Notes under the pieces: generated by a model
Databases searched by the model: none
What the model saw: the letters and a program-made list of their open reading frames with translations, nothing else
What the model was told of the DNA's origin: nothing
Made by a program: the position numbers and the translations under genes
NCBI GenBank assembly: GCA_043820105.1
Contig: JBDREC010000046.1
Location: 8,687-72,686 of the forward strand
Direction of reading: 5' to 3'
DNA: 64,000 nt
Source: Pseudomonadota bacterium
GTDB lineage: Bacteria > Bdellovibrionota_F > JAHFAK01 > JBDREC01
Shown here: positions 4,574 to 56,078 of the stretch, piece after piece
Numbering within the stretch: the first letter of the stretch is position 1
Layout of the letters: each line of letters opens with the position of its first letter

Positions 4574-4583
4574 TGTTTCCTAG

Positions 4584-5352: not shown

Positions 5353-5384
5353 TTTTAACTAATTAATAAACATATTTACCACTT

Positions 5385-34832: not shown

Positions 34833-34851
34833 GCAAATTCAAGGAGTTTTT

Positions 34852-35862: not shown

Positions 35863-35925
35863 GTGGTAAGGGGTAAGTGGTAAGTGGTAAGTGGTAAGTG
35901 GTAAGTCGTAAGTCGTAAGTCGTAA
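35849..35925. repeat. (GTGGTAA)11 heptamer repeat with GCGGTAA/GGGGTAA/GTCGTAA variants, overlapping the dctP stop codon
   Basis: The dctP TAA stop is the TAA of the second repeat unit. Confidence 0.9.
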
Positions 35926-35981
35926 GATTGGATGCTCGATGTTGGGAGGTGCTTAGTTAGTGACTATTAATGAAAGGTTAA

Positions 35982-36464
35982 ATGAAACTGATTAGATATA
36001 TAAATGAAAAAATTGTTAAGCTTGAAATTGGTGTTTTAGTAGCTATTACAATGTTTATGATTATTTCATCTTTTGTTCAGGTTGTCTTAAGGACCTTTTT
36101 TAATACGGGTTTTGAAGCAGCTGATATTATTAACAGGCATCTTGTGCTTTGGATAGGTTTTATTGGTGCTTCCTTAGCTACGCATAATGAAAAACATATT
36201 AATGTCGACTTGTTTTCTGTATTTATCTCAAAGAAACATAAAAAAATTGCAAAAGTAATTACTTCTTTATTTGCTATTGCAATTTGTATAATTTTGGCAA
36301 AGGCAGGTATTGATTTTGTGAAATCTGAGATTGAATTTTCTATGCCCATTATTGGTAATATAAAGCCTTTCTATTTTGAACTTATTATTCCGTTTGGCTA
36401 CATTGTTATTGCTGCTCGCTTTTTATTGAATCTTATTGAGAATCTTTTGCCAGGAGATAAGTAA
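35982..36464 (+). CDS. dctQ: TRAP transporter small permease (DctQ)
   Basis: 160 aa with 4 TM helices. Confidence 0.75.
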   Translation: MKLIRYINEKIVKLEIGVLVAITMFMIISSFVQVVLRTFFNTGFEAADIINRHLVLWIGFIGASLATHNEKHINVDLFSVFISKKHKKIAKVITSLFAIAICIILAKAGIDFVKSEIEFSMPIIGNIKPFYFELIIPFGYIVIAARFLLNLIENLLPGDK

Positions 36465-36467
36465 GCC

Positions 36468-37778
36468 ATGACCAGCCTTCTTGTTATATTTGTTATTATA
36501 ATTCTAGCCTTATATGGAACCCCTTTGTTTGTAGTTTTAGGTAGTATTGCCTTATTTTCTTTCTTTCGTGAAGGTTATGGAGCTGATTCAGGGCCATTGG
36601 TTATAATGCCACTTTATGATATTGTTTCATCTCAGCCTGTTTTGCTTGCCATTCCTTTGTTTACCTTCGCTGGATATATGATGGCTGAATCAAAGACCCC
36701 TCAAAGGCTTGTTGAATTAGCGCGAGCCTACATTGGGTGGATGCCTGGTGGAATTGCTCTGGTTACATTATTTACTTGTGCGATTTTTACTGCTTTTACA
36801 GGTGCAACGGGAGTGACTATAATAGCTCTTGGTGGTTTGATGTATCCTGTCTTATTAAAGGATATGTATGGTGAAAAGTTTTCTTTAGGTCTTATAACTG
36901 GTGCTGGAAATATTGGTTTATTATTTCCTCCATCTCTTCCAATCATACTTTATGCTCTGGTTGTTCCAAAAGATGGTGATATGATGGTTTCAGTTGATCA
37001 GTTGTTTGCAGCTGGTTTACTCCCTGGTCTATTGATTTTAATGGTAATTGGAATATACGTTATTCTTTATGCCAAGCAAAAAAGATTATCAACTTACAAG
37101 TTTACCTTCACAGAAGCTTTAAGGGCAACTCAAAATGCTATTTGGGAGATCCCGCTTCCTTTTATAATTATTATTGGAATTTATGGAGGTTATTTTACAG
37201 CAACAGAAGCTGCTTCATTTGTTGCTTTCTATGTTTTTGTTATTGAGGTTTTTATATATAAGGACATAAGCCTTAAAAAAGATCTGCCAAAAGTCATAAC
37301 TGAATCCATGATGCTAACAGGTGGGGTTTTAATTGTTTTAGGAACAGCCATGGGCCTTGCTAATTATATGATTGATGCTCAAATTCCCATGAAGATTCTT
37401 TCATTCATGGAGCAATTCATAACATCAAAGTTTGTTTTTCTTATGACTTTAAATATCTTTTTATTAGTTGTTGGTTTTTTGCTGGATATATTTTCTGCTA
37501 CCCTGGTTGTTGTTCCTTTGATAGCGCCGATTGCTTCAAGTTTTGGAATAAATCCAGTTCACCTTGGTATTATTTTTCTAACAAATCTTGGAATAGGTTA
37601 CTTAACGCCCCCTGTTGGCATGAATCTATTTATTGCTTCATTTAGATTCAATAAGCCAGTTCTAACTCTATACAGGGCTTCACTTCCATTTCTTTTTTTG
37701 CTGCTTATTTCTCTAATAATCATAACCTATGTTCCATTCTTAAGTACTTATGTAGTTGAGCTTTTGAATATAAAATAG
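36468..37778 (+). CDS. dctM: TRAP transporter large permease (DctM)
   Basis: 436 aa with 12+ TM helices and DctM-family motifs. Confidence 0.85.
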   Translation: MTSLLVIFVIIILALYGTPLFVVLGSIALFSFFREGYGADSGPLVIMPLYDIVSSQPVLLAIPLFTFAGYMMAESKTPQRLVELARAYIGWMPGGIALVTLFTCAIFTAFTGATGVTIIALGGLMYPVLLKDMYGEKFSLGLITGAGNIGLLFPPSLPIILYALVVPKDGDMMVSVDQLFAAGLLPGLLILMVIGIYVILYAKQKRLSTYKFTFTEALRATQNAIWEIPLPFIIIIGIYGGYFTATEAASFVAFYVFVIEVFIYKDISLKKDLPKVITESMMLTGGVLIVLGTAMGLANYMIDAQIPMKILSFMEQFITSKFVFLMTLNIFLLVVGFLLDIFSATLVVVPLIAPIASSFGINPVHLGIIFLTNLGIGYLTPPVGMNLFIASFRFNKPVLTLYRASLPFLFLLLISLIIITYVPFLSTYVVELLNIK

Positions 37779-37851: not shown

Positions 37852-40683
37852 ATGGCAGTTGATTATATAAAGATACGTGGAGCCAGGCAGCATAACCTTA
37901 AAAATGTGGATGTGGATATTCCAAGGAATAAGCTTGTTGTAATAACTGGTATTTCTGGTTCTGGTAAGTCATCACTGGCTTTTGATACAATTTATGCTGA
38001 AGGTCAGAGAAGGTATGTGGAATCACTTTCTGCCTATGCTCGGCAGTTCTTAGATAGAATGGATAAGCCTGATGTAGATTCTATTGAAGGTTTATCTCCA
38101 GCTATTTCTATTGAACAAAAAACAGTTAGTAAAAATCCAAGATCAACTGTAGCAACTGTTACAGAAATTCATGATTACCTTAGGCTTTTATATGCAAGGA
38201 TTGGAATTCCATTTTGCTATTCTTGTGGCAAAAAGATTTCATCTCAAACTGTGCAGCAAATCGTTGATTCAATTTGCGCTTTAGATGAAGGAGCAAGGAT
38301 TCATGTGCTTGCTCCAATTGTTAGAGGCAAGAAGGGTGAATTTCAGAAAGAGTTTAGCCAATATTTAAAAGAAGGCTATGTTAGAATTAAGGTAGATGGA
38401 GAAACTCTTGATTTAAGTCCTGGACTTAAGCTTTCAAAAAATAAGAAGCATGATATTGATGTTTTCATCGATAGATTAATTATTAAGGAAGGTATTAAAA
38501 ATAGGGTAACTGATTCAGTTGAAACCACTTTGAAATTATCTGATGGGCTTGTTAAAATTGATATTATTGATGCAAAAAACGAGCTTTTAAAAAGTATATT
38601 ATTTTCTGAAAAATTTTCCTGTAATGACTGTAATATTAGTTATCCATCAATTACTCCTCAAATGTTTTCTTTTAATTCGCCACAAGGAGCTTGTCCTGAA
38701 TGTGATGGTTTGGGAACCAAGATTTATTTTGATGAAAAGCTTATTGTTCCTGACCAAAATTTGACTTTAGCTCAGGGAGCAATAGCTCCTTTTGGAAATA
38801 CCACTTCAAAATATTATTATCAAATGCTGCTTGCTGTAGCAAGTCATTATAGCTTTAGTTTGGGCATTCCATTTAGACAGCTTGATGATGAAATTAAGGA
38901 TATATTAATATATGGCTCAAAGGGTGAAAATATAAAATTTTCCTTTGTTGGGGATGATATGTCACATTCTTTTGAAAGACCCTTTGAAGGAGCAATTCCA
39001 TATCTTGAAAGAAGATATAAACAAACAGAATCTGAAAAAATTAGAGATGATTTAGATAAATATATGTCTCAAAGGATTTGTGAAAAATGCAATGGAAAGC
39101 GCTTAAGACAAGAAAGTCTTCACATCCTTGTTGGTGAAATATCAATTGATAAATTCCTGAAAATGTCGATTAAAGAAGGCATTGAATTCCTGATAAATAT
39201 TAAGCTTACAAAAAAAGAAGAACATATTGCACGAAGGATTCTAAAAGAACTAAAAGAGCGGCTAGGATTTTTGTCAAGTGTTGGGCTTAATTATCTTTCA
39301 CTTGATCGATCTTCAGCTACTTTATCTGGGGGTGAAGGTCAAAGGATAAGACTGGCAACTCAGATTGGATCTTCCTTAAGTGGTGTGTTGTATATTTTAG
39401 ATGAACCAAGCATTGGCCTGCATCATCGTGATAATGGAAGGCTCATTGAAACCTTGAAAGGACTTCGTGATTTAGAAAATACTGTTTTGGTTGTTGAGCA
39501 TGATGCTGATATGATGTTAAATGCTGATTATATTTTTGATATGGGACCTGGCGCTGGCAGGCATGGGGGAAAGTTAACAGCTCAAGGTACTCCAAAAGAG
39601 ATTATGCAAGATCCTAATTCTTTAACAGGAAAATATTTGTCAGGCGAAAAGCAAATTAGGACAGCTAAGAAAAGAAGAAAAGGACATGGCAAATCAATAA
39701 CTATTAATAAGGCCTTTGGAAATAATTTAAAAAACTTAGATGTAAGCTTTCCTCTTGGAAAATTTATTTGTGTCACAGGAGTTTCTGGTTCAGGAAAAAG
39801 TACCTTAGTAAATGACACCCTTTATAAATATCTTGCTCAACATTTTTACAGGGCCAAGATGCATGAAACAGTAAAATGTAAACATATTAAAGGAATAAGT
39901 TACATTGATAAGGTTATAAATGTTGATCAATCTCCAATTGGAAGAACCCCACGATCTAATCCAGCTACTTATACAGGGCTTTTTACCCCAATTAGAGAGC
40001 TTTTTGCAGATCTGCCTGATTCAAAGATGCGCGGTTATAAACCCGGGCGTTATTCTTTTAATGTTAAGGGTGGAAGATGTGAAGCTTGCCAGGGTGATGG
40101 TGTAATAAAAATTGAAATGCATTTTTTGCCAGACGTTTTTGTCCAGTGTGAGGTTTGTAAAGGATCAAGGTATAATCGTGAAACTCTTGAAATTAAATAT
40201 AAAGGGAAGAATATTTCAGATCTTTTAAATATGACTGTTGATGAAGCTGCCAAGTTTTTTGAGAATCAACCAGTGATTTCAGCAAAGCTTGAGACTTTAC
40301 AAGAGGTAGGTCTTGGTTATATTTGTCTTGGTCAATTTGCCACAACACTTTCTGGTGGTGAGGCGCAGAGAATTAAGCTTTCAAAAGAACTTTCAAAAAG
40401 ATCAACAGGCAGAACTCTTTATATTTTAGATGAACCAACTACTGGCCTTCATTTTGATGATATCAAAAAACTTTTAGCTGTTCTAAATCGCTTCGCAGAT
40501 AAGGATAATACTGTGATTGTAATTGAACACAATCCAGATGTGATTAAAAATGCAGATCATATCATTGATCTTGGGCCTGAAGGTGGTGATGAAGGTGGTC
40601 AAGTTTTAGCACAGGGTACACCTGAAGAAATCGCAGCTTGCAAAGATTCATATACTGGAATGATGTTGAAAGAAGTGTTGTGA
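37852..40683 (+). CDS. uvrA: Excinuclease ABC subunit A
   Basis: 943 aa with two ABC ATPase modules, zinc fingers (CxxC) and the UvrA signature. Confidence 0.95.
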
Positions 40684-42532: not shown

Positions 42533-44545
42533 ATGAAAAAGGTAATTATTATTATCATTCTATCAATTTTTACCTTAAGTTGTCTTGGTTCAGATGATAC
42601 ATCTTCAGATACGACCATAACTGGTACAGTTCAAGTAATAGGTTTTGATGCTTCCACAAAAGATTTAGTGGTTAATCATCCTGTTAGTGTAAGTATTTCC
42701 GTACAATCAAAAATAGGTCTTGCCAATTTAGAGGTTTCTGTTGGACTAGTGGAAACTCCTGAAGAAAATGCAACAGAAGATGAAATGGCTGATTTGCAAT
42801 CTTGTCTTTTAGGAGTTGTTCGCTTTGAGGATCTCAAGGCAAATGTTGCTAAAACTATGCATGAAAGCTTTAGAGTGAGCTCTGATTGTGAGTTAAGTGA
42901 TACATCTAAAACCCTGAACTTTTTTACCATTATTGATATTTTTGATAAAAGTGATTTTTCAGCGGATCCTTTAAGTGATGATGGAATTGCTGCTTTTTAT
43001 ACAAAAAACCAGAGTCGTCCTAATAATAAAGTTTGCTTAACATCTGATGGTGATGTGGGATGTATTGTTAATGTTACTGTAGATGAAAATCCTGGTATAG
43101 ATTTATCTATGTCTAAATTTTCTTTGCAATCAAGTACAGTGATTTTATATGATGGCACTGATAGTTCTAATGTGCCAGCTGGTGAAGGGGAATATAATCC
43201 AGCACACGCAAAAGCTAATATAGCAATTCGCCTTGATGGAGTGAGTAGTGATGCTGAAAATGACTTAACTGCAGCTACTGAAATTCGTTATGATATATGT
43301 CCCAAAAATGGAACAAATCCAGATTGTGTTTTAGGTGAATGGATGCCTGTTACCATTTTTTCAGTAAAGGACGCTGCAAGTGGACATGATAGAATTGCTG
43401 AAGTCTCTTCTCTCAGCGGAGGGCACGATAGTTATTATCAGCATGATTTATATTTTGAAGGTGATACTTTGACTGCAATTTCAGCAGGTGGAGCTTGGGC
43501 AGATCACGGTCAATTTACGCTTCGAGCCTGCATTAACATTCCAAGAGCAGCTGAAGCAGAATTTAGTTTAAGCGCTTTTACCCCTTTAACAGAGGCTTCA
43601 GAAATGGGTTATGGTGAAAGCCTGGATAATAATTGTAAATATTTTAAGGTAAATATTACTGAACCAAGGGATCAGGGTAATTCGCCTTCTTTAAGCTTTG
43701 ATCATTCATATTCTAATACTTGGGGAGATGATGATACAATTGCTGTTTACGCAGATATCGGGACTACTAACACCCTTGACAGTGAAGGAGCCCATTCCCA
43801 TACCTATGCTGAAGTAAAACTAGAAGGCTGGATTTCTTCAACCATTTTTCATGCAGACTCAGATGTAGATGCTGATACTGATATTTCTGATAATGAAATT
43901 GACTTAACGGTCGTTGCTATGGATTCAACTGTTTACAGCTATTCAAGAGAAGGTGAGTCAGAACTAACTTTTGATGAGGATTGGTCTGTTTCTAAAAAGA
44001 TTTGTGCAACTTTTTCCTATGGAATTTGGATTGTGAGTGTTGATGTAGATGTTTGTGCTTCTGGATCTTTGGGATTTGATGCGACGCTTACGATGTCATC
44101 TCACGCTGGGGATGATACAAGTAATTTTGATACAACTACAACTGCATATGGTGAAGCAATCCCAACCATTACTCCAAGTCTTGATTTTGATGCTTCAGCC
44201 ACAGCATCACTAGATGCAGTTATTTATGAAGCAGGAGCCAAGGCTTCCATTTCACTGCTTGATCTTTCCTCGCCGTTAACGGCCTCATTAAAATGGGGAT
44301 CTTATAGTGATTCAGAAATGGGTGTTATTGTTGATGTGGACTTCTCAACAGATATTACAACTCTAGATGGTTATCTTGAATTATACGTTGATAAAAAGGA
44401 AGTGGATTGCGTTCATGATTATGAACCTTGGACTTGCAGTTCATATTGGCACCGTGAAGACACTGATACAATTGCATCATGGACTGCTGTAACATATGAT
44501 CATTCTCTCTTAAATGAAACAACTTCAGATACCTTAGAATTTTAA
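42533..44545 (+). CDS. Large acidic lipoprotein (hypothetical)
   Basis: An RBS (AAAGGAGGA) and a lipobox (FTLSCLG). 670 aa, rich in D/S/T with paired Cys. Confidence 0.6.
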   Translation: MKKVIIIIILSIFTLSCLGSDDTSSDTTITGTVQVIGFDASTKDLVVNHPVSVSISVQSKIGLANLEVSVGLVETPEENATEDEMADLQSCLLGVVRFEDLKANVAKTMHESFRVSSDCELSDTSKTLNFFTIIDIFDKSDFSADPLSDDGIAAFYTKNQSRPNNKVCLTSDGDVGCIVNVTVDENPGIDLSMSKFSLQSSTVILYDGTDSSNVPAGEGEYNPAHAKANIAIRLDGVSSDAENDLTAATEIRYDICPKNGTNPDCVLGEWMPVTIFSVKDAASGHDRIAEVSSLSGGHDSYYQHDLYFEGDTLTAISAGGAWADHGQFTLRACINIPRAAEAEFSLSAFTPLTEASEMGYGESLDNNCKYFKVNITEPRDQGNSPSLSFDHSYSNTWGDDDTIAVYADIGTTNTLDSEGAHSHTYAEVKLEGWISSTIFHADSDVDADTDISDNEIDLTVVAMDSTVYSYSREGESELTFDEDWSVSKKICATFSYGIWIVSVDVDVCASGSLGFDATLTMSSHAGDDTSNFDTTTTAYGEAIPTITPSLDFDASATASLDAVIYEAGAKASISLLDLSSPLTASLKWGSYSDSEMGVIVDVDFSTDITTLDGYLELYVDKKEVDCVHDYEPWTCSSYWHREDTDTIASWTAVTYDHSLLNETTSDTLEF

Positions 44546-44548
44546 TAA

Positions 44549-46441
44549 ATGTATTTTAAGAATAAAAAAATATATTTTTATATTTTAATTTTTCTTTTTA
44601 TTGTAGGCTGTTTTTTTCTCATAAAGGAAACTTATTTCTCAAATAATAAATCAATCGCTAATTTAGAAATATGTAACATGCAAAAAGATGATGGTTTTTC
44701 CTATGAGTTTGAAATTGATACTCGTGCCACATTTTCTTTATCGTCTTTTATGGGAAAGAAAGCAAATAAAGAAAATCTTCAAAAAACACATAATCTAATG
44801 AAAGGCAAAATAAGTTTTAGAGCACTGAAAGATACTGATGATAGGACTTTAATGGCAGGCCAATTGAGTGAATTGGAGTATGAAATTAACAAAAGAAAAG
44901 CTTTTGAATCTATAAAAGAACTTAGCATTCCTTTTAAGTTTAAACTTGGAAGCAATTGTTCAATATCAGAAATAGATTTATCCTATATTCCTAATAAGAA
45001 AAATAAACAGTTAATTGAAAATGTTATTTATGAACTGCAAATGACTTTTTTAGGTGATGAAAACCAAGAAAAATGGCAAGCAAAAGAAGAAAATGCTCTT
45101 GCAGGCTATGAAGCAAATTATTTGGTCAATGAAATTTCTAAAGATAGCATTTCTATTCATAAAGCTAAGGAAAAATATTTTACTTCAAATACTAGTTCCA
45201 ATAAATCAAATGAGAGTATTAATGTTATTTCATCTGACATCAACATTAGTATATCAAAAAATAAAAAGTGGTTTGATTCAATAAGTACAAAGGAAAGTAT
45301 TGAGATTTTAAAAAATGATGAAATATTCATGCAAGTTGAAAACAAATTAAAAATAAAAAAGTATTTAAAGCCTATTGAAAATTTAGCCCTATGGCAAGAT
45401 GATATCTTTTCAGAATATGAAAATCCTATTGATATAGAAAACTTTTCAAAGATCTATCGCAAATCCCAATTAAGTCATGAATCTAATGAGCGTGATATCA
45501 ATACATTAATAAATAGGTCTTTAAATAGGTCTTTTTCACAAATTTTAGAAGATTATAAAAAAAATATCTTATCAAAAAATCCTTTAGAAAAATCAAAGGC
45601 ACTTGATCTTTTAGTTTCTTATTTAAGGGCAAAAGAAGGGGCTAGCCTTGAGCTTACTCATGCAATAAAGACAGGTGACCTGGAAAATGAATACCAATCT
45701 ATGGCCTTTTTAGCACTGGAACTATCTTCAACTAACGAGTCACAAAAAGCCTTAATGGATGTTTTGCAGGATGTTGATCATAGTTCAATGAATAGAATGC
45801 GATCTGTGATTGCTTTGCAGGATATAAAGAATCCAGCTCCAGAAGTTTTTGATTCAATGATAATTCAAATGAATAAATCAGTTCCGGAAAACGTTGATCG
45901 TGGTGAAAATGATGTTGCAAGAACAAGTGCTTTATCTTTGGGTACATTGGCTGCAAATAATAAAGAAGCTTTTGGAGCTAGAGCTAAAGAAGAATTATTA
46001 AAAAACCTTAAAAGCGCAAATAATTCGTCAGAAACAGCGCTTTATATAAGAGCCTTGGGAAATACTAAGAATCCTTTATTAATTGATGACATAGTCCCAT
46101 ATTTAAATTCCTCTTCAAGCTCTGTACGGTCAGCTTCTGCTGACACTATTGGAGCTATAGATTCAGTGCAATCAGAAGCAATTCTTCTTAATCAGTTTTC
46201 AGAAGAAGAATCTAAAAAGGTTCGTTTAAGTATCATGAAATCTTTAAATAAATTAAGCAAAACAAGTGAAAATTCAACCAATTCCATATCAAATCTCATC
46301 TTATTTGAAGAAAATAAGGATGTGAGAGCTCAAATGATTATTTTTTTAGGTCAAAGGGCTGCTTATAAGGCTCTGTTAAACTTTAAAAACCATGAAAAAG
46401 ATAGTGATAATATAGCGTTAATTGGACGATATATAAAATAG
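44549..46441 (+). CDS. Membrane-anchored protein with C-terminal HEAT/PBS-lyase-like repeats (hypothetical)
   Basis: An N-terminal TM segment. The C-terminal repeats (RSVIALQDI..., VRSASADTIGAI...) resemble HEAT repeats. It sits 3 nt after the previous gene. Confidence 0.55.
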   Translation: MYFKNKKIYFYILIFLFIVGCFFLIKETYFSNNKSIANLEICNMQKDDGFSYEFEIDTRATFSLSSFMGKKANKENLQKTHNLMKGKISFRALKDTDDRTLMAGQLSELEYEINKRKAFESIKELSIPFKFKLGSNCSISEIDLSYIPNKKNKQLIENVIYELQMTFLGDENQEKWQAKEENALAGYEANYLVNEISKDSISIHKAKEKYFTSNTSSNKSNESINVISSDINISISKNKKWFDSISTKESIEILKNDEIFMQVENKLKIKKYLKPIENLALWQDDIFSEYENPIDIENFSKIYRKSQLSHESNERDINTLINRSLNRSFSQILEDYKKNILSKNPLEKSKALDLLVSYLRAKEGASLELTHAIKTGDLENEYQSMAFLALELSSTNESQKALMDVLQDVDHSSMNRMRSVIALQDIKNPAPEVFDSMIIQMNKSVPENVDRGENDVARTSALSLGTLAANNKEAFGARAKEELLKNLKSANNSSETALYIRALGNTKNPLLIDDIVPYLNSSSSSVRSASADTIGAIDSVQSEAILLNQFSEEESKKVRLSIMKSLNKLSKTSENSTNSISNLILFEENKDVRAQMIIFLGQRAAYKALLNFKNHEKDSDNIALIGRYIK

Positions 46442-46617
46442 TATAACTAATAATAATTTTGAATTTTAAATTTAATTTGTTGGTACTTTGGTGACTTCCT
46501 TATTTGTTTACCAAGCCTTTTTGTATTAATTAAAATTGACTCAAATTATTATATCAATTAAATGGATAGCCTATGAAGAAATTCAAATTAAACAATATAT
46601 TAATAAATTAGAATAAA

Positions 46618-47727
46618 ATGAAAACTATCAAAGATTCAAATATAAATCTTATTTCAGAAGATAAAAGAAAGAGAGATTTAGAAGAGAGAGTAAAAGAATT
46701 ACATTGCTTGCACGAGCTCTTAGATCTTTTTTACACAAATAAAAACCGCGATGATATTTTAAGCAAGGCTGTTTATATAATAAAGAAAAGTTGGCAATAT
46801 CCTGAATGCACAGAAGTAAGATTGAATTTTAATAATAAAAATTACAAAACAGGCGGTTTTGTTGAAACTGTATGGAGACAAGCAGCTGACATTCTTCTTG
46901 ATAATAAAAAGCTGGGAATCCTTGAGGTTTATTATACAGAGGAAAAACCTAAGGAATATGAAGGTGTTTTTTTAAAAGAAGAAAGGGCCTTGATAAATAG
47001 TATTTCCAGGCAATTTACCTATATGGCACAGCAGATTGAAACAGAAAAAATTATTGCTTCCTATCAAAGGCAATTAAGATCACTTGCCTCAAAACTTTCT
47101 TTAGCTGGAGAAGAAGAAAGAAGAAATATTTCAAATAGTCTTCATGATACTATTTGTCAGGATTTAGCCTTATCAAAAATAAAAATTAATAAAATAAAGA
47201 AATCTCTTGATAAAAATAATATAGATTTTGCTCTTCAGGATGTGTCAGAGCTTATTAATTCTTTATTGAATAAGACACGGGCTTTAATTTTTGATATTAG
47301 TCCACCAATTCTTTATGAACTTGGTTTAGAGGCTTCAATTGAATGGCTAGCTGAAAAAATTCAAAAAGAGCATAATATTCGTACCTCAGTTTATAATGAT
47401 AAAAGAAAAAAAAGACTTGATAAAGATTTAAAAGTATTTTTATTCCAAGCTGTGAGAGAATTATTGATAAATGTGGTCAAACATGCTCAGGCAAAGAATG
47501 TAAAAATAAACATTAACGAGCAAAATGAATTTATTGTAATTGAACTTATTGATGATGGTATAGGAATTGATGATTGTAAGCTTGATACAATAGGGGATGA
47601 AACAGGAGGTTTCGGTCTTTTTAGCATTAAAGAAAGGATTTTTTTATTTAATGGAAGCTTTGAAATATCAGGAACCTTAAATAAAGGCACACAAATAAAA
47701 TTGCTAGCACCTTTAAAACAAAAATGA
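46618..47727 (+). CDS. Cytoplasmic sensor histidine kinase (GAF-like N-domain + HisKA_3 + HATPase)
   Basis: An H-box (SNSLHDTICQDL, NarX/HisKA_3 type) and HATPase motifs (DDGIGID, GGFGL). Confidence 0.8.
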   Translation: MKTIKDSNINLISEDKRKRDLEERVKELHCLHELLDLFYTNKNRDDILSKAVYIIKKSWQYPECTEVRLNFNNKNYKTGGFVETVWRQAADILLDNKKLGILEVYYTEEKPKEYEGVFLKEERALINSISRQFTYMAQQIETEKIIASYQRQLRSLASKLSLAGEEERRNISNSLHDTICQDLALSKIKINKIKKSLDKNNIDFALQDVSELINSLLNKTRALIFDISPPILYELGLEASIEWLAEKIQKEHNIRTSVYNDKRKKRLDKDLKVFLFQAVRELLINVVKHAQAKNVKININEQNEFIVIELIDDGIGIDDCKLDTIGDETGGFGLFSIKERIFLFNGSFEISGTLNKGTQIKLLAPLKQK

Positions 47728-47740
47728 AGTGGAAAAAATA

Positions 47741-48388
47741 ATGAGCAAGAAAATATTGATAGCAGATGATCATAAAATATTACGAGATGGTTTGAAGTCA
47801 TTAATAGAAAATGAGACAAGTTTTCAAGTTGTCGCTGAAGCAAAAGATGGTGAAGAAGCTGTAGAACTTAGTCTTAAGCATAAACCAGAAATTGTCATAA
47901 TTGATATTACCATGCCAAAACTTAATGGAATAAAAGCCGCTGAAATGATTTTGCAAAAGATTAAAGATGTGAAAATTATTGCCTTATCAGTTCATGCTGA
48001 CAAAAGATATGTCTCTCAAATGTTTAAAGTTGGTGCAAAAGGATATTTATTAAAAGATTGTGCTTTTGAAGAACTAATCCAAGCTATACATACTGTTATT
48101 GAAGACAAGGTATATATAAGTCCAGCGGTAGCTGGCGAGGTTGTTGGTGATTATATAAGACATTTAGACAGAGGGAAATCTTCTGTTTTATCCTTGTTAA
48201 CTCAAAGAGAAAGAGAAGTTCTTGAGTTATTGGCAGACGGGAAAAACGCAAAAGAAGTGGCTTTCATGCTTGAAATTAGTGTTAAAACAATCGAAACACA
48301 TCGCAGACAACTTATGGAAAAGTTAAATATTCACAGTATTGCAGAATTAACAAAATATGCAATAAGAGAAGGCATAATCAATCTCTAA
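47741..48388 (+). CDS. NarL/FixJ-family response regulator (REC + LuxR HTH)
   Basis: A receiver domain (ADDH...D...K) and a C-terminal LuxR-type HTH (LTQREREVLELLADGKNAKEVAFMLEISVKTIETHR). The alternative start is 47729. Confidence 0.85.
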   Translation: MSKKILIADDHKILRDGLKSLIENETSFQVVAEAKDGEEAVELSLKHKPEIVIIDITMPKLNGIKAAEMILQKIKDVKIIALSVHADKRYVSQMFKVGAKGYLLKDCAFEELIQAIHTVIEDKVYISPAVAGEVVGDYIRHLDRGKSSVLSLLTQREREVLELLADGKNAKEVAFMLEISVKTIETHRRQLMEKLNIHSIAELTKYAIREGIINL

Positions 48389-48519
48389 TCCAAATCCTTA
48401 GCTATTCATCAGGTTTTATCTTACCCAAAATCATACTTATCCTAATTGTTCAACTATTTTTTATTCTCTATAACAGCTTTCAATTTTAACAAAATTATTA
48501 TTGCTAAGAGGTAAATAGA

Positions 48520-49806
48520 ATGAATGACAAAGCTTTTAGTGCCTTTGAGATGGCTCAAAGACAATTTGATCAGGTTGCAGATCTTTTAGATTTAGATGCG
48601 GCCTCAAGAGATCTATTGCGTAATCCAATGAGAGAATATCATTTTAATATTCCAGTGAAAATGGATGATGGTTCAGTCTCTGTATTCAGAGGATTTAGGG
48701 TTCAACACAATGATGCAAGGGGTCCTGGTAAAGGTGGAATAAGGTTTCATCCCCAAGAGACGATTGATACTGTTAGGGCGCTTTCAATGTGGATGACCTG
48801 GAAATGTGCTTTAGTTGATATTCCTTTGGGTGGTAGTAAGGGAGGCGTGATTTGTGATCCGCATAATTTGAGCTTATCAGAGCAGGAAAGACTTTGCAGG
48901 GGATGGGTTAGACAAATTGCTAGAAATATTGGACCATGTATTGACGTGCCTGCTCCAGATGTTATGACTAATGCACAACATATGCTATGGATGCTTGATG
49001 AGTTTGAAGTTATCCATGGAGGAAAGTTTCCAGGAGTTATCACTGGAAAGCCAGTTGGCCTCGGAGGATCACTTGGCAGAACAGAAGCAACTGGATATGG
49101 TGTAATATTTACAGTAAGAGAAGCTTTAAAAGAACTGGGAATTATGCCTGAAAACACAACAGCCAGTTTTCAGGGTTTTGGAAATGTTTCACAATATGCA
49201 GCAAAACTTTATCAGCAATTGGGTGGAAAAATAATTTCTGTCTCTTGTTGGAATCAGAAAGAGCAGATAGCTTATACTTATAAAAAAATTAAGGGTATTA
49301 ATTTAGAAGATCTTTTGACAATAACAGATCGCTTTGGAGGCATTGATAAAGAAAAAGCATTTGAAAAAGGTTATGAAATCTTGCCAGCTCAAGCCTGGAT
49401 AAGTCAAGATGTTGATATTCTAATCCCAGCTGCCCTTGAGAATCAAATTACAGCTAGCAGTGTTAAAAAAATTAGTGAAAAAGTAAAAATAATTGCAGAA
49501 GGAGCTAATGGTCCTACAACACCTGAAGCAGATGTATTTATTAAAGAAAAAGGTATCTTTTTAATTCCTGATTTTTTAGCAAATGCAGGTGGGGTTACTT
49601 GCAGTTATTTTGAACAGGTGCAAAGTAATATGAATTATTATTGGGAAAAAGATGAAGTTTTAAGCAAGCTGGATCTTAAAATGACCTCTGCATTCAAAGA
49701 AGTGAGCAGGTTATCAAGAAAAAGAAATATATACCAAAGGGATGCAGCCTATATAATAGCTATTAATAATGTTGTTAAAGCTTGTAAGGAAAGAGGTTGG
49801 GTATAA
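48520..49806 (+). CDS. gdhA: Glutamate dehydrogenase (Glu/Leu/Phe/Val dehydrogenase family)
   Basis: The family signature KGGIRFHP...LVDIPLGGSKGGV and a Rossmann domain (GFGNVS). Confidence 0.85.
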   Translation: MNDKAFSAFEMAQRQFDQVADLLDLDAASRDLLRNPMREYHFNIPVKMDDGSVSVFRGFRVQHNDARGPGKGGIRFHPQETIDTVRALSMWMTWKCALVDIPLGGSKGGVICDPHNLSLSEQERLCRGWVRQIARNIGPCIDVPAPDVMTNAQHMLWMLDEFEVIHGGKFPGVITGKPVGLGGSLGRTEATGYGVIFTVREALKELGIMPENTTASFQGFGNVSQYAAKLYQQLGGKIISVSCWNQKEQIAYTYKKIKGINLEDLLTITDRFGGIDKEKAFEKGYEILPAQAWISQDVDILIPAALENQITASSVKKISEKVKIIAEGANGPTTPEADVFIKEKGIFLIPDFLANAGGVTCSYFEQVQSNMNYYWEKDEVLSKLDLKMTSAFKEVSRLSRKRNIYQRDAAYIIAINNVVKACKERGWV

Positions 49807-51566
49807 TGATTGAGAACACCAAGTTTCCACTTCCAAAAACAATCAAAAGATTTCAAAGAGAATTCTTTGAGTCAAAAGATGACTTTACGTATATTGGAAA
49901 TGGATCTTTTGGTGGTAAGGCATTGGGGCTGCTTTTTATTCATGATAAATTAGTGAAATCCTGTGAGAATAATACTGGCTTTGAGAATATTAGGGTAAGT
50001 ATTCCTAAATCTACAATTATTACGACAGAGCTGTTTGATATCTTCATGAAAAGGAATAATCTTTATGATTTATTTTCTAATAAAAATATTTCAGATGAAG
50101 ATATTGTTCTTGAGTTTCAGCAAGCCGAGTTGCCTACGGAACTTTTGGGTGATCTGCGGGCCCTAATTTCAAAAGTTCACAGTCCATTGGCCATTAGATC
50201 ATCAAGTTTGATCGAAGATTCAATAGACGCGCCCTTTGCAGGAATTTATGCAACAAAAATGATTCCTAACAATCAATCTGAAACAACAATGCGCTTTAGA
50301 AAATTATCAGATGCAATTAAGTTTGTGTACGCATCAACATTTTTTAAATCTGCCAAGGACTATATTAGTTCTATAGATTTAAACATTAACAATGAAAAAA
50401 TGGCTGTAATTATTCAAGAGTGTGTTGGAAATTTATATGATGATTATTTTTATCCGAACATATCAGGCGTGGTTCGTTCTTACAATTTTTATGCTTTTGG
50501 TAAGTCAAAACCACAAGATGGAATGGGGAGTTTGGCTTTAGGATTGGGAAAAACTATTGTGGATGGATCCAATAGTTGGAACTATTCACTTACTAATCCT
50601 AAAGCTCCTCCCCCTTATAACTCTATTTCAGACCTTTTAAAGCTTAGTCAGAATAAGTTTTGGGCTGTTGATATGTCAAAACAGACAAAATATGATCCTG
50701 TGAAAGAAACAGAGTTTATGAAATTACTTGAACTTAAAGAAGCCGAGTTTCATGGGAACTTACAGCCCATAGCTTCAACATATGACCCAGCTTCTGATAG
50801 AATAGCCTTTGGAACTCATGTAAATGGTCCAAGGCTTTTAAATTTTACTCAAATATTAGATTTTGAAGAAGTGAAATTAAATAAACTTTTATTACATATT
50901 GTGGATTTATGTAAAGATATGTTCAAAGAAGATGTTGAAATTGAATTTGCACTAAATTTTGATCATAAAAATTATAAAAATGTAAGGTTTGCTTTTTTAC
51001 AAGTCAGACCAATAGCAGTGTCAAATGAAAACACAACAGTTGAGAGTAGTGAGTTATTGCAATCTGATAATTTATTGTCTTCAGATGTTGTGTTGGGAAA
51101 CGGAAGTGATAACAATATTAAAGATATAGTTTTTGTTAAACCTGAAGTTTTTGATAAAAGTAAAACAAGACAAATCGCTAATGAACTTGAACTAATTAAT
51201 AAAGACTGTCTCAGAGAAAATATTAATTATTTATTAATTGGATTTGGTAGGTGGGGAAGTCAAGATGAATGGCTAGGAATACCAGTTGATTGGGGTCAGA
51301 TATCTAAGGCAAAGGTTATTATTGAAGCAACTTTGCCAGCAATAGATGTTGAAATAAGTCAAGGCTCCCATTTTTTTCATAATCTGACTGGCTTTAAAAT
51401 TCCTTATTTTTCTGTAAAGCACAATAGTAAATTCTCAATAGATTGGGATTGGCTTAATTCGCAGAAAATGATAAAAGAAACAAGTTTTTTAAAACATGTT
51501 AGATTAAGCAGGCCCTTAAATGTTAAAGTCGATGGCAAAAAGGGAATTGGTGTAGTGAAAAAATGA
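49806..51566 (+). CDS. PEP/pyruvate-binding (PPDK_N, ATP-grasp-like) domain protein lacking the phosphohistidine and PEP-utilising domains
   Basis: GGKALGL, the VRSSSLIEDS...FAG motif and FLQVRP, all typical of PF01326. The start overlaps the gdh stop (TAATG). The C-terminal ~180 aa is paralogous to the next gene. Confidence 0.7.
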   Translation: MIENTKFPLPKTIKRFQREFFESKDDFTYIGNGSFGGKALGLLFIHDKLVKSCENNTGFENIRVSIPKSTIITTELFDIFMKRNNLYDLFSNKNISDEDIVLEFQQAELPTELLGDLRALISKVHSPLAIRSSSLIEDSIDAPFAGIYATKMIPNNQSETTMRFRKLSDAIKFVYASTFFKSAKDYISSIDLNINNEKMAVIIQECVGNLYDDYFYPNISGVVRSYNFYAFGKSKPQDGMGSLALGLGKTIVDGSNSWNYSLTNPKAPPPYNSISDLLKLSQNKFWAVDMSKQTKYDPVKETEFMKLLELKEAEFHGNLQPIASTYDPASDRIAFGTHVNGPRLLNFTQILDFEEVKLNKLLLHIVDLCKDMFKEDVEIEFALNFDHKNYKNVRFAFLQVRPIAVSNENTTVESSELLQSDNLLSSDVVLGNGSDNNIKDIVFVKPEVFDKSKTRQIANELELINKDCLRENINYLLIGFGRWGSQDEWLGIPVDWGQISKAKVIIEATLPAIDVEISQGSHFFHNLTGFKIPYFSVKHNSKFSIDWDWLNSQKMIKETSFLKHVRLSRPLNVKVDGKKGIGVVKK

Positions 51567-54500
51567 AAAAGGATAGCAAAGCTATAAAAGATAAGACATT
51601 TTACAATGAGCTTAATGAAAGAACAAAAGAGCTGAATTGTCTTTATGAACTTGATAAAATACTGGAAATTATAGGTCTTGATAGTCTTGTTTTATTTGAA
51701 AAATTGATGCCTATTATTAAGTGTGCCTGGCGATATTCTGAAATATGTTGTATAAAAGCCATGTTTCGAAAAAAAGAATTTTATTCTGATGAATTTACTG
51801 AAACTCCATGGGTACAAAGTTCTAACATCTTTATTCAAGGGGAAAAAGTAGGACAAATAGATGTTTATTATTTGGAAGAAAAAGAAGATGTTGGGGAAGG
51901 ATGTTTTTTACCTGAAGAGAGAAAACTATTAAATACCATAGCAGATCGAGTTGGGAAATATTTTTACTATGAGGAGCTTCGCAGAAATTATTTGAAAATG
52001 CAGGAGCTTAAGCAAGAGCCTACAGAGTTAAAAGATGAAAAATGGAAAGTTATTTTAAGCATGATATCAAGGACTGATGCAAATCTCCTTGCTTTGATTG
52101 TTAAGAAGATGCTTTATAGATTATGTTGGGCTGGTAATATAGAAGCTCAGTCAATGATGCAGGAATATGGTCATGATTTAGCAGAAACACAAGAAGGGTC
52201 TATTATTGATGCTAATAGACCAATCAAAAAAAAGAAAAATGAATCACTCATTGATCTGAGAAATAAAATATTTAATATTGCTTCTGAAGTTTATAGTGAT
52301 GAAGCAATTATAGATTTAATTGAAAAATGGATGAAGGAAAATAATGTTAGCTTTCTTGTGAGAACTTTAGAAAGTAATAGTACTTCTTTTGCAGAAATAT
52401 CAGAAGCCATCTCAAAATATCAGCATTTAACTCCTGGAGATGCAAAAATATCAGGTGTTACCAAGAAAAGTCTTTTAGTGCTTTTAACCAGGAGATTTTT
52501 AACTGAAAATTTACGGTTTACAAATATTGCAAAACAGTATTTGGAAATAAAAGATTTTTATAAATTATTTCAGCATACTATTGCTCCTTTTGACAGTCAT
52601 GGAAAATTGGGTGGGAAAAGTTCTGGTCTTTTTCTTGCATCATCTATTATAAAAAGAAAAGCAAAAGATCTTAATATCCAGATAAAAGTTCCTAAGACCT
52701 GGTTTGTATCTTCAGATACAATTTATAGTTTTATTCATTATAATAATTTGGGTGATATAATTGAACAAAAATATAAAACTATTAATCAAATCAGATCCGA
52801 ATATCCACATATTGTTCACGTTTTTAAAAACGCTTCTTTTCCTTCTGAGATTATAAGTGGTTTATCCTCAGCTTTAGATGATTTTGGGAATAAACCCATT
52901 ATTGTCAGAAGTTCATCTTTATTAGAGGATAATTTTGATACATCTTTTGCTGGAAAATATAAAAGTTTATTTTTAGCTAACCAGGGGACAAAAGAAGAAA
53001 GGCTTGAAGCCTTGATGGATGGTATTGCAGAGATATTTGCATCTACTTTTGCCCCTGATCCAATTTCTTATAGAATAGAAAAAAATCTTCTGGATTTTAA
53101 AGAAGAGATGGGTATTTTAATTCAAGAAGTAGTTGGTAAAAAGACTGGAAAATATTTTTTTCCAGCTTTTGCTGGAGTTGCCTTTTGTAATAATGAATTT
53201 AGGTGGTCAAAAAGAATAAAAAAGGATGATGGGCTTTTAAGGATAGTTCCTGGTTTGGGAACAAGGGCTGTTGATAGATTAAGTGATGACTATCCAATTT
53301 TAATAGCGCCAGGTCAGCCAAATTTAAGAGTTAATACAATTCCCAAAGAAATTTGCAAATATTCTCCACAAAAAATTGATGTTATTAATTTAGAATCAAA
53401 TGAATTTCAAACTGTTGAGATTGAAAAAATATTAAAAGAAATCGACTATGATTATCCACAAATAAATAATGTTATGTCTATATATGATGGAGATTCTCTA
53501 AGAATTCCAGCACCATTTGAATTAGATTTTAAAGAAAATACCAAGGATCTTGTTGTTACTTTTGAAGGAATGTTTAGCAAAACAACATTTATTAATGATG
53601 TTAAAAAAATATTAGATGAATTGAAAAGTGTTTTAAAAACACCTGTAGATATTGAGTTTGCCTTTGATGAAAATGATTTTTATCTCTTGCAATGTCGACC
53701 ACAAAGCTATTCTATTGAGAATAAACCTCAGCCAATACCAAAAAACATTGAAGCTAAAGATTGTTTATTTACAGCACATAAGTATATTTCAAATGGATAT
53801 GTGCCTGATATTAGCCATATTGTTTATGTTGATCCTTTGAACTATGCTACTATAAAAGAACATTCAGAATTATTCAGAATTGGCAAAGTTGTTGGAAAAT
53901 TAAATAAATTATTACCAAAAAGAAAATTTATTTTAATGGGTCCTGGAAGGTGGGGAAGTAGGGGAGATATCACTTTGGGTGTCAATGTAACTTATGCTGA
54001 TATTAACAATACTTCTGTTTTAATAGAAGTGGCCAGAAAAAAAGGCAATTATGTTCCAGATCTGTCATTTGGAACGCATTTTTTTCAAGATCTGGTAGAG
54101 TCTAATATCAGATATATTCCACTATACCCAGATGAAGGGACTTGTGTTTTTAATGAAAACTTTCTTAACAATAAAAAGAACCTTTTATCAGAAATCTTAC
54201 CAAAATATGGCTATCTAAAAGACGTAATTAAGGTTATTGATGTACCGCATTCAACTGACGGGAAAATATTAAAAATATTAATGAACTCTGATCTAAACGA
54301 AGCTTTAGCCTATTTTTCAAAACCATCAATGAGCACAGAAGTAGAAGAAGAAGTATATACGCCAGATACCAAAGAAACACAGCCAGATGAATGGAATTGG
54401 AGAATGTTAATGGCCAACAAATTGGCATCAGAGCTTGATTCAAGAAAATACGGTGTAAAGAACATTTATGTATTTGGAAGCACTAAATCAGGGACTGCAC

Positions 54501-54748
54501 AAATGGGTAGCGATATTGATCTTCTGGTTCACTTTAATGGTAGCAAAAGCCAAAGAATAGAACTTATGCATTGGTTTGATGGTTGGAGCAAGGCCCTTGA
54601 TGTAATGAATTATTTAAAGACAGGATATAAGTCTGAGGGATTATTAGATGTTCATTTTATAACAGATGAAGACATTAAGAATAAGACAAGTTTTGCTGTG
54701 AAGATTGGTGCTGTAACAGATGCTGCCAAGCCTTTAAAGATGAAGTAA
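51563..54748 (+). CDS. Multidomain protein: GAF-like sensor + PPDK_N ATP-grasp-like domain + C-terminal pol-beta-superfamily nucleotidyltransferase
   Basis: The N-terminal ~130 aa is homologous to the HK N-terminus at 46618. The central part has GGKSSGL ... IVRSSSLLEDNFDTSFAG ... LLQCRP. The C-terminus carries the minimal NTase motif FGSTKSGTAQMGSDIDLLV. The ATGA overlap with the previous gene suggests coupling. Confidence 0.7.
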   Translation: MKKDSKAIKDKTFYNELNERTKELNCLYELDKILEIIGLDSLVLFEKLMPIIKCAWRYSEICCIKAMFRKKEFYSDEFTETPWVQSSNIFIQGEKVGQIDVYYLEEKEDVGEGCFLPEERKLLNTIADRVGKYFYYEELRRNYLKMQELKQEPTELKDEKWKVILSMISRTDANLLALIVKKMLYRLCWAGNIEAQSMMQEYGHDLAETQEGSIIDANRPIKKKKNESLIDLRNKIFNIASEVYSDEAIIDLIEKWMKENNVSFLVRTLESNSTSFAEISEAISKYQHLTPGDAKISGVTKKSLLVLLTRRFLTENLRFTNIAKQYLEIKDFYKLFQHTIAPFDSHGKLGGKSSGLFLASSIIKRKAKDLNIQIKVPKTWFVSSDTIYSFIHYNNLGDIIEQKYKTINQIRSEYPHIVHVFKNASFPSEIISGLSSALDDFGNKPIIVRSSSLLEDNFDTSFAGKYKSLFLANQGTKEERLEALMDGIAEIFASTFAPDPISYRIEKNLLDFKEEMGILIQEVVGKKTGKYFFPAFAGVAFCNNEFRWSKRIKKDDGLLRIVPGLGTRAVDRLSDDYPILIAPGQPNLRVNTIPKEICKYSPQKIDVINLESNEFQTVEIEKILKEIDYDYPQINNVMSIYDGDSLRIPAPFELDFKENTKDLVVTFEGMFSKTTFINDVKKILDELKSVLKTPVDIEFAFDENDFYLLQCRPQSYSIENKPQPIPKNIEAKDCLFTAHKYISNGYVPDISHIVYVDPLNYATIKEHSELFRIGKVVGKLNKLLPKRKFILMGPGRWGSRGDITLGVNVTYADINNTSVLIEVARKKGNYVPDLSFGTHFFQDLVESNIRYIPLYPDEGTCVFNENFLNNKKNLLSEILPKYGYLKDVIKVIDVPHSTDGKILKILMNSDLNEALAYFSKPSMSTEVEEEVYTPDTKETQPDEWNWRMLMANKLASELDSRKYGVKNIYVFGSTKSGTAQMGSDIDLLVHFNGSKSQRIELMHWFDGWSKALDVMNYLKTGYKSEGLLDVHFITDEDIKNKTSFAVKIGAVTDAAKPLKMK

Positions 54749-54750
54749 TA

Positions 54751-55623
54751 TTAGATGAGAATTCTTTTAGCTTGATCAAGCTTATCTAAGTTAAATTCAA
54801 CAATAGCGAGTTCCTTGCCATTATGTGCAGCTGAGAAACAGTGGGTTTCATTAATTTTATCTTTCCATGACTTTGTTATACTTGCTGATTCATGGATGTG
54901 TCCATGAAGAGTTAATAATGGTTTGTTATTTTCAATAAATCTTCTTATTGCAATGCTACCTACATGAACATCAAGCTGCACATGGTCTATCATTTTTCCA
55001 TCAAGTGCAGCATAATCAAGGTTTGTGTTGTGAGGAGGAGCATGAAATAAAAATATTGAATTTATAAATTTATCACCCTTTGTTAGGATTTCCAGATCAT
55101 TAGAAATCGTAGAATGTTTAATAATATTTTCTGGAATTTTTTCTGATCTATAACCTTCATAGGGATGAATACAGCCTGGGTCAACATATTGACTAACATC
55201 ATATTTTTCCCAATCTTTAAAAAGAAATGGAGTAGGTGGTATATATGAATATCCGAATATATTATAATTATAAAGTTGGGTTTTTTTAAAATGAATATAA
55301 TTCCAAAGCCCTTTTTTTTCAGCTTCTATTAAATGAACTTCATTTATTTTTGGGTCATCATTTCCGAGTATTAAATATATTTTGGGATATTGTTTTTTTA
55401 GCTTTTTCCTGAGAATAAATAACTGAGGACTTAGAAAATCGTTTATAAAATTATCGTAATTTTTGTGATTATTGTTTGTTAAGCAACTAAAGGCAGATGG
55501 TAATATATCACCTCCAACAAAAATGATTTCAGGAGTTTTTTTTATGATATACTTAAAAAGTTTGTTATATTTTACTATATCTCCATGTAGGTCTGTCACA
55601 AAAAAACATTTTGTTTGGTTCAT
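54751..55623 (-). CDS. Calcineurin-like metallophosphoesterase
   Basis: The motif series DLHGD, GGD, GNDD and GHIHE is present. Confidence 0.75.
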   Translation of the reverse strand: MNQTKCFFVTDLHGDIVKYNKLFKYIIKKTPEIIFVGGDILPSAFSCLTNNNHKNYDNFINDFLSPQLFILRKKLKKQYPKIYLILGNDDPKINEVHLIEAEKKGLWNYIHFKKTQLYNYNIFGYSYIPPTPFLFKDWEKYDVSQYVDPGCIHPYEGYRSEKIPENIIKHSTISNDLEILTKGDKFINSIFLFHAPPHNTNLDYAALDGKMIDHVQLDVHVGSIAIRRFIENNKPLLTLHGHIHESASITKSWKDKINETHCFSAAHNGKELAIVEFNLDKLDQAKRILI

Positions 55624-55796
55624 AGTTATCCACTAGGGGTTTAGAAAAAATTATTAATACAATTAAATATTAATTTTAGTGATAATAATCAAGATTAGAA
55701 ATATCTATGCACAATAAACATTATGATAGATTTCTAAGTTAACTAAACAGCGCTATTAGTGATTAAGTGATGCTTGCTTTTTCTGGTTTTTTACAA

Positions 55797-56078
55797 TTAC
55801 CCAAAAAACTTTAGAAAAATAATATAAAAAAATAGTAAAACAATAGCACCCAACCAGGTGATTAATAAAGCTCCACCAAGTTTTACAAAAATGTTGGACT
55901 TTTTAAAGTCAAAGGCTTGAAGACCACCAGCCATTTTTCCATATTTACCTCCTTTTGAAGGAGTGGAAGCTAGACTAAGAGAAAAACCACAGCTCGGGCA
56001 ATTTTTTTTTCGATTGGAAAATTCTTCACCACAGCTAGGGCAGCCTGATTTATTAGGATTAGAAGTATTTTCAGACAT
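55797..56078 (-). CDS. Small zinc-ribbon membrane protein (hypothetical)
   Basis: CPSCG...CPSCG followed by a C-terminal TM helix. Confidence 0.4.
   Translation of the reverse strand: MSENTSNPNKSGCPSCGEEFSNRKKNCPSCGFSLSLASTPSKGGKYGKMAGGLQAFDFKKSNIFVKLGGALLITWLGAIVLLFFYIIFLKFFG

Follow-up and report, generated by a model that had tools for sequence, protein, structure and literature searches.

The 64-kb stretch of DNA analysed here (contig JBDREC010000046.1; hereafter the window) carries the genes of a two-component system (TCS) directly upstream of a glutamate dehydrogenase (GDH) operon, and two of the encoded proteins, the histidine kinase of the TCS and a 1061-aa multidomain enzyme, begin with the same domain, here called the module. 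The order of the genes is kinase, response regulator, gdh, a 589-aa protein with a PPDK_N (ATP-grasp) domain, the 1061-aa protein and a convergent metallophosphoesterase (Table 1). The adjacency of the TCS and the gdh operon, on which the original prediction relied, was confirmed: the two units are co-directional, 131 bp apart, and a scan of positions 46300-55900 found no terminator-like site between them. Promoter-like sites in the same region occurred at the frequency expected from shuffled sequence and are uninformative in AT-rich DNA. Kinase and regulator form a TCS of the NarL class (Pfam HisKA_3 3.7e-8, HATPase_c 4.4e-12, Response_reg 1.6e-28, GerE 5.2e-19), and neither a transmembrane segment nor a sensor domain other than the module was detected in the kinase. 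The dehydrogenase is a member of the GDH family by its two domains (ELFV_dehydrog_N 2.1e-54, ELFV_dehydrog 7.7e-68) and matches the GdhA-type model of NCBIfam at E=5e-143, yet below the equivalog cut-off.

The kinase and the 1061-aa protein each carry a true homologous copy of a cytoplasmic signalling domain of ~125 residues. BLASTP aligned kinase residues 20-130 with residues 16-127 of the 1061-aa protein (43/112 identical, 38%; 60% positives; 1 gap) at a composition-adjusted E of 6e-20, and the Smith-Waterman score of the pair was 204 against 32.9 +/- 5.9 for shuffled sequences (n=2000, maximum 68). At z=29 the similarity is not compositional, and it was through a compositional origin that the proposed kinship of the two N-termini might have failed. 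The span in which the similarity was first noticed corresponds to kinase residues 1-144 and contains the whole profile match (residues 15-141). In the 64-kb window tblastn found exactly two copies of the module, these two. To the 1061-aa protein the module is integral: it is strongly conserved and present in 120/120 orthologues retrieved; it was also present in 111/120 of the best kinase homologues. The full-length kinase served as query for these; the kinase module on its own gave no match in a word-indexed protein search, a limit of sensitivity and not a sign of absence.

Table 1. Features of the TCS and gdh operon in the window.
Feature	Position	Strand	Description and evidence
Histidine kinase, whole	46618-47727	+	369 aa
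Kinase module, N-terminal	46618-47050	+	Residues 1-144, core ~15-141; long helix with ERVKELHCLH, second helix, WQYPEC, four beta-strands, then EGVFLKEERALI into C-terminal helix; BLASTP, profile match, AlphaFold2, GAF structural neighbours
Kinase core	47051-47727	+	HisKA_3 residues 167-230, HATPase_c 273-367, NarL-class; Pfam, NCBIfam
Response regulator (NarL family)	47729-48388	+	REC + GerE/LuxR helix-turn-helix; start 1 nt past kinase stop; Pfam
Intergenic region upstream of gdh	48389-48519	.	131 bp, AT-rich; presumed promoter and response-regulator target, from gene order
GDH	48520-49806	+	ELFV_dehydrog_N + ELFV_dehydrog (Pfam); GdhA-type (NCBIfam)
589-aa PPDK_N (ATP-grasp) protein	49797-51566	+	Overlaps gdh stop; C-terminal unannotated alpha/beta domain (GFGRWGS...GSHFF); Pfam
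1061-aa protein, whole	51563-54748	+	
Second module copy, N-terminus of 1061-aa protein	51563-51997	+	Residues 1-145; ERTKELNCLY, WRYSEICC, ETPW, VYY, EGCFLPEERKLL
Rest of 1061-aa protein	51998-54748	+	Helical ~154-337; PPDK_N ATP-grasp 348-730; alpha/beta 734-920; minimal nucleotidyltransferase 943-1047; Pfam, AlphaFold2, Foldseek
Metallophosphoesterase	54751-55623	-	Convergent with operon; Pfam

The first ~145 residues of the two proteins matched no Pfam or NCBIfam model, even at E<=10. AlphaFold2 predicted the kinase module with high confidence (pLDDT 89.9, pTM 0.79), as two helices (4-40, 44-57), strands at 65-71, 74-77, 87-94 and 97-106, and a final helix (120-143); the full-length model of the 1061-aa protein shows the same secondary structure in its module. 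Foldseek returned GAF domains for almost all of the top PDB neighbours, among them 3K2N-type, cyanobacteriochrome, phytochrome, Nlh1/Nlh2, NifA (8jrc), fRMsr, CodY and PtsP (3ci6) structures, with query-normalised TM scores of 0.55-0.70, a probability of ~1.0 and ~10% identity, the targets being 20-60 residues longer. Judging from the models, the nearest solved structures are thus GAF domains, and the description as GAF-like holds at the level of the fold, with the reservation that the predicted sheet has four long strands and two one-residue bridges instead of the usual five to six strands. It does not hold at the level of sequence, where no GAF model recognises either module at E<=10. When the module alignment (A2) was compared by hhalign with a shallow profile of canonical GAF domains from the same proteins, which comprised 4 sequences only despite an attempt to add more, the result was marginal, at P=0.004 and a probability of 8%, in a topologically sensible register. 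A search of PDB sequences with the module profile gave only spurious matches to designed propeller repeats. The models therefore suggest a minimal GAF-like domain, GAF by fold neighbourhood and by no current sequence model.

The module has a marked signature of its own. Alignment A1 and a class-by-class tally define a core of L21-x-E23-R24-x-K26-E27-L28-x-C30-L-(Y/H) in helix 1, W59-Q60-Y61-P62 before strand 1, a further conserved W86, G100-x-h-E-V104-x-Y106 in the hairpin and (E)G116-P-F118-L119-x-E121-E122-x-x-L125 leading into the last helix. In short form this reads ERxKELxCLY, WQYP, W, G-x-hEV-x-Y and EGPFLxEExxL, and by the same alignment and tally neither copy of the window has lost a family-core position.

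When 1.84 billion representatives of clusters at 50% identity were searched exhaustively with the profile, 11,460 proteins with the module were recovered at E<=1e-3, 5,153 of them at E<=1e-30; a genome scan with A1 gave at least 600 module matches, of which at least 563 were confirmed. The matches listed come from numerous bacterial phyla and from several lineages of archaea, for the most part anaerobes. The module occurs in one to five tandem copies per protein. Its partner domains in a sample of 68 were PAS (48), HATPase_c (33), HisKA (21), canonical GAF (13) and REC (11), with HisKA_3, HisKA_2, GerE, MCPsignal and Ser/Thr kinase (Pkinase) as further partners. A common simple architecture is the module followed by a coiled coil and a GerE/LuxR helix-turn-helix (10/10 tested); in these one-component regulators, as in the kinases of ~370 aa, the module is the sole possible input domain. 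Among larger architectures, tandem arrays of 3-5 modules are fused to a Ser/Thr protein kinase (P0241) or to signalling domains of methyl-accepting chemotaxis proteins (P0242, P0246), and a protein of 558 aa (P0160) combines a TetR_N/TetR_C_6 repressor, the module and a HisKA_3/HATPase_c kinase in one chain. The module represents a distinct GAF-like family for which the copies of Pfam and NCBIfam searched hold no model, and a major unannotated domain family.

Comparison of loci supports a functional link between the TCS and the gdh operon. The order gdh, 589-aa gene, 1061-aa gene is kept in 13/13 loci of the 1061-aa type, archaea included (L012, L034), and the metallophosphoesterase usually lies convergent directly after the 1061-aa gene, a position kept in L012, L014, L031, L056, L057, L077, L064 and L081. 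Outside the operon, a kinase with the module, in part with an additional PAS domain, and HisKA_3 is followed by a regulator and then gdh in L008, L010, L044, L052 and L069; module-HisKA kinases stand beside gdh in L058, L065 (with the regulator in between) and L041; and in L064 a module-GerE one-component regulator is divergent from a complete gdh operon. Altogether, module-bearing regulators were found beside gdh in 9/68 non-operon loci, against ~0.5-2% expected by chance (binomial P 4e-11 to 1e-5), and these associations involve three output architectures of the regulators and two GDH subtypes. Eight close homologues of the kinase on long contigs were also sampled (L081-L088). One of them (L081) repeats the two-module layout of the window, with kinase and regulator by gdh, a module protein of 1060 aa, the phosphoesterase and, 6 kb off, amtB-glnK. 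Three (L083, L085, L086) adjoin pntA-pntB and an aminotransferase gene, the layouts of L083 and L085 being near-identical; L082 has an aminotransferase gene and pntB nearby, L087 and L088 adjoin an ammonium transporter gene (amt), and L084 has no obvious link. Additionally, a module-GerE regulator lies beside glnK-amtB in L073. The common denominator of the contexts of the kinase homologues and of L073 is ammonium assimilation and the glutamate node.

The four-gene cluster of gdh, 589-aa PPDK_N gene, 1061-aa gene and convergent metallophosphoesterase (48520-55623 in the window) occurs in many bacterial phyla and in archaea (L012, L014, L031, L034, L056, L057, L064, L067, L077, L081), and no description of it was found in the literature searched. 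Likewise, no relevant paper turned up on the motif, on the operon or on reversible inactivation of GDH in Bacteroides, in a body of literature whose incomplete coverage leaves room for publication elsewhere. Variants of the arrangement exist. In Chloroflexota/Anaerolineae (L009, L040, L047) the module-PPDK_N protein is 921-966 aa long and ends without a C-terminal nucleotidyltransferase (NTase); the cluster continues with a second, different GDH (~33% identical) and a second PPDK_N protein of 843-858 aa without the module. In Thermodesulfobacteriota (L069, 15747-18398, minus strand; L052, 18873-20375, minus strand) the kinase-regulator-gdh unit is followed by a convergent, module-less homologue of the 1061-aa protein, so that the module is on the kinase only. 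Next to the kinase homologue of L082 lies a defence island (856-7162) with a pair of genes resembling a cyclic-oligonucleotide-based antiphage signalling system (SMODS/DncV-like NTase and SAVED), type I restriction-modification and HicAB.

In the large enzymes of the cluster, PPDK_N (PF01326) matched at 1.1e-60 in the 1061-aa and 4.5e-33 in the 589-aa protein, which identifies an ATP-grasp domain in both, and the 589-aa protein is a paralogue of the 1061-aa core (29% identity over 532 aa, E=1e-41, BLASTP). The best structural match of the ATP-grasp core (~346-730) is rifampin phosphotransferase (5hv3, Foldseek E=2.6e-13), followed by pyruvate phosphate dikinase (PPDK), with PDB sequence matches at E ~1e-6. 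Residues 943-1047 form an NTase of the MNT/Pol-beta type (NTP_transf_2 PF01909 1.3e-10, PF18765 6.9e-7, a weak NCBIfam match to MntA), whose structural neighbours are the MNT structures 8xeh, 7bxo and 2rff. Source records name these enzymes "pyruvate, water dikinase" or "nucleotidyltransferase". The first of these names, found in some records, fails: no Pfam match at E<=10 to the PEP-utilizers swivel or to the barrel that binds phosphoenolpyruvate (PEP) or pyruvate was found in residues 730-926 or in the 589-aa C-terminus, and the NCBIfam equivalog scores of both proteins for PEP synthase and PPDK lie far under the cut-offs. After the ATP-grasp, both PPDK_N proteins contain an alpha/beta domain (window 53762-54322 and 51069-51563) with the motifs G(P/F)GRWGS and (F/Q)G(T/S)HFF and an invariant His (GPGRWGS and FGTHFF in the 1061-aa protein), for which there was no Pfam or PDB sequence match. 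One may speculate that it is a divergent phosphohistidine domain, with the His of GTHFF as its swivel phosphohistidine. Of the best homologues found for the 1061-aa protein, ~10% (P0001-P0007, P0010, P0019, P0024-P0026) are ~1630 aa long (1625-1655 aa) and consist of the 589-aa and 1061-aa proteins joined in one chain, the module lying internally at ~575-720; these fusions argue that the two proteins act as one unit. Moreover, the catalytic core of the 1061-aa protein also occurs without the module, in the 589-aa protein and in paralogues of 840-1010 aa, as would be expected if the module were an added regulatory domain.

Of the surrounding genes, an open reading frame (ORF) of 670 aa for a lipoprotein-like product without Pfam match (42533-44545) and the gene of a 630-aa HEAT-repeat protein (44549-46441) lie upstream of the kinase, preceded by a TRAP transporter (TAtT and DctM components, 33966-37778) and uvrA (37852-40683); downstream there is an ORF of 1215 aa without Pfam match (57995-61642, minus strand). 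The window contains no tRNA gene and no Rfam family at the gathering threshold. It has ~32% G+C, and the best homologues of GDH and of the 1061-aa protein come from metagenome-assembled genomes of Ignavibacteria, Bacteroidota, Calditrichia and Delongbacteria. Given this composition and these lineages, the label 'Pseudomonadota bacterium' of the source record may be unreliable.

We propose that one cytoplasmic signal of nitrogen or glutamate status acts through both modules, on transcription and on an enzyme, and we give this reading a probability of roughly one half. The simplest members of the family stand repeatedly beside nitrogen and glutamate genes, and the module therefore probably senses nitrogen status; it would be an input domain reading the glutamate node in the cytoplasm. 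In the kinase, the module, as the only sensor, would control autophosphorylation and thereby phosphorylation of the LuxR-type regulator, which in turn would control how far the neighbouring gdh operon is transcribed from the 131-bp region in front of it. The module of the 1061-aa protein might allosterically gate the dikinase-like ATP-grasp core and the minimal MNT-type NTase. The activity so controlled could be directed at GDH or at the reaction that GDH catalyses. GDH itself is a plausible target, for instance of a covalent modification that the conserved metallophosphoesterase could undo. A single signal would thus be felt at two levels, much as NtrBC and GlnE act on glutamine synthetase. 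The likeliest ligand is a small metabolite, possibly 2-oxoglutarate or glutamine/glutamate, a guess guided by the precedents of GAF domains that read nitrogen metabolites (NifA, EI-Ntr). That the two modules respond to the same signal, as the original prediction had concluded from their similarity, is not proven; comparison of sequences and gene neighbourhoods lends it strong indirect support, since module-bearing regulators recur beside gdh in distant lineages and the family-core residues are kept in both copies.

Several observations weigh against this proposal. Both the target of the regulator and the substrate of the 1061-aa enzyme are deduced from gene order only. About 57/68 of the non-operon loci sampled are not beside obvious nitrogen genes, and many of these encode multi-PAS proteins, so what the family senses overall may be broader than nitrogen status. 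With 38-46% identity to the 1061-aa type, the kinase module shows no special closeness to it, its nearest neighbours being generic modules; nor do the modules of gdh-adjacent regulators, when compared with the 1061-aa type, cluster together with it, as their nearest neighbours are generic modules as well. Furthermore, the GAF, GAF_2 and GAF_3 profiles match neither module (hmmscan against Pfam at E<=10, and NCBIfam likewise), and the predicted structure, with its four long strands, appears to lack the lid of the classical GAF pocket, which is made up of helices and a strand. Finally, sequence conservation is unusually strong for a sensor domain and could reflect a cofactor or a protein partner instead.

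The first alternative, which we regard as unlikely, has the module as a sensor of the redox, thiol or cofactor kind. The conserved cysteine of helix 1 and a second one at the start of strand 1 would form a redox disulfide or a metal, Fe-S or haem site, and kinase and enzyme would respond to redox state or oxygen in place of a nitrogen metabolite. The cysteine frequencies that bear on it were taken from the 'rep' and 'hkU' sets only, because the 'gen' and 'REGgdh' sets are biased by a scan pattern that demands the first cysteine. The first cysteine is aligned in the two proteins (C30 in the kinase, C26 in the 1061-aa protein); 99% of the 1061-aa type and ~70% of the unbiased family sets retain it. 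A second cysteine within 5 residues on the same strand is found in 96% of the 1061-aa type. The carrier lineages are overwhelmingly anaerobes among the matches listed, GDH and PntAB are linked to NAD(P)H, and the very high conservation would suit a fixed cofactor. However, the second cysteine stands at 64 in this kinase, at 65 in the 1061-aa type (94%) and at 66 in most others, positions that would alternate between the faces of the strand, and it is present in just 26% of kinase-type modules. Two amt-linked kinases without the first cysteine (KELTLLHK, KELTALHA) keep the rest of the core, and two cysteines per domain would be too few for a cluster unless a dimer is bridged. Given these kinases and the irregular second cysteine, a thiol or cofactor mechanism cannot be general, though it is possible for the 1061-aa type. 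Of the conserved cysteine pair originally put forward as pocket residues, the first member survives as an aligned position, absent from ~30% of unbiased members, and the second is out of register; the pair as a general conserved pocket was rejected.

Alternatively, the module might bind no small molecule and serve as a domain for protein-protein contact, dimerisation or signal transmission, docking PII or GDH or joining kinase and 1061-aa protein in a heterodimer. We consider this distinctly unlikely. An identity of 40-60% between unrelated proteins, across phyla and architectures, would be in keeping with such a role, as would the long flanking helices and the tandem arrays of up to five copies, which resemble helical-spine signalling arrays; glnK is close by in L081 and L073, and for some NifA proteins the GAF domain is reported to interact with PII (PMC3854208). 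Yet hundreds of soluble kinases and LuxR-type one-component regulators have no other possible input domain, in most genomes with the operon no kinase bearing the module lies near it, which makes obligatory heterodimerisation unlikely, and the conserved polar residues R24, K26, E27, Q60, E121 and E122 would equally suit a ligand site. The weakest alternative, which we hold to be very improbable, is that the two copies share ancestry and not specificity, reading different signals side by side through a coincidence of gene order: their identity is just 38%, the kinase module is nearest to generic modules, the family is found in many unrelated contexts, and GAF and PAS families generally diversify their ligands, but all core positions are kept in both copies, the two-module layout returns in L081 and L064, and above all regulators with the module are associated with gdh time and again, independently, in three output architectures and with two GDH subtypes.

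If a shared nitrogen signal is indeed what the two modules read, a wider and far more tentative picture can be drawn, although we doubt that it will hold in full. The module would be a sensor of nitrogen status (2-oxoglutarate/glutamine) that has so far gone unrecognised and is widespread among anaerobic bacteria and archaea, and the gdh cluster with its metallophosphoesterase a system for reversible covalent modification of GDH, the GDH counterpart of the adenylylation cascade of glutamine synthetase, with module-kinases and LuxR regulators as the transcriptional arm. Should the main proposal be right, a domain in more than 11,000 protein clusters, often the sole sensor of a kinase or LuxR-type regulator, would gain a fold, a signature and a physiological theme. 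Attention is also drawn to a conserved four-gene GDH cluster that spans many bacterial phyla and several archaeal lineages. To our knowledge, nitrogen control is poorly understood in many of the lineages concerned, such as the Bacteroidota/Ignavibacteria group, Thermodesulfobacteriota, Chloroflexota and anaerobic archaea, and a sensor shared among them and linked with gdh, amt and pntAB would give experiments a direct way in.

Among known systems, NtrB/NtrC with GlnE/GlnD follows a like logic: one nitrogen signal acts through a TCS on transcription and through a nucleotidyltransferase on glutamine synthetase. The same two-level arrangement is proposed here, where it would be built from different proteins, with a different sensor domain and a different target enzyme (GDH, whose modification is a proposal), and no requirement for PII is apparent. 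In its catalytic part the 1061-aa protein resembles rifampin phosphotransferase, PEP synthase and PPDK, the best structural and sequence relatives of residues ~346-730; unlike these dikinases, it has no swivel His or substrate domain detectable with Pfam and carries the alpha/beta domain with GRWGS and G(S/T)HFF instead. Its residues 943-1047 are similar to MNT-type NTases (HEPN-MNT antitoxins, MntA), with the difference that they are fused to a large enzyme, lack a HEPN partner and are encoded in a gdh operon. As for the sensor, the module shares with GAF domains, including that of NifA, which binds 2-oxoglutarate (PMC12998190), an N-terminal helix, an antiparallel sheet, a C-terminal helix that passes on the signal and a position N-terminal to the output domain. 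It differs from them in being shorter, in a predicted sheet of four long strands that appears to lack the classical pocket's inserted helices and strand, in its own highly conserved signature and in coexisting with canonical GAF domains in the same proteins as a separate domain. Finally, EI-Ntr (PtsP) also places a GAF-type sensor before a phosphotransfer enzyme of the PEP-utilising superfamily; its GAF domain binds glutamine and controls the fused phosphotransferase, the binding of glutamine inhibiting autophosphorylation (PMC4848567). The 1061-aa protein departs from this design in having a PPDK_N ATP-grasp in place of the PEP-binding domain of EI or a recognisable PEP-utilizers swivel domain, in possessing an extra NTase and in being encoded together with GDH.

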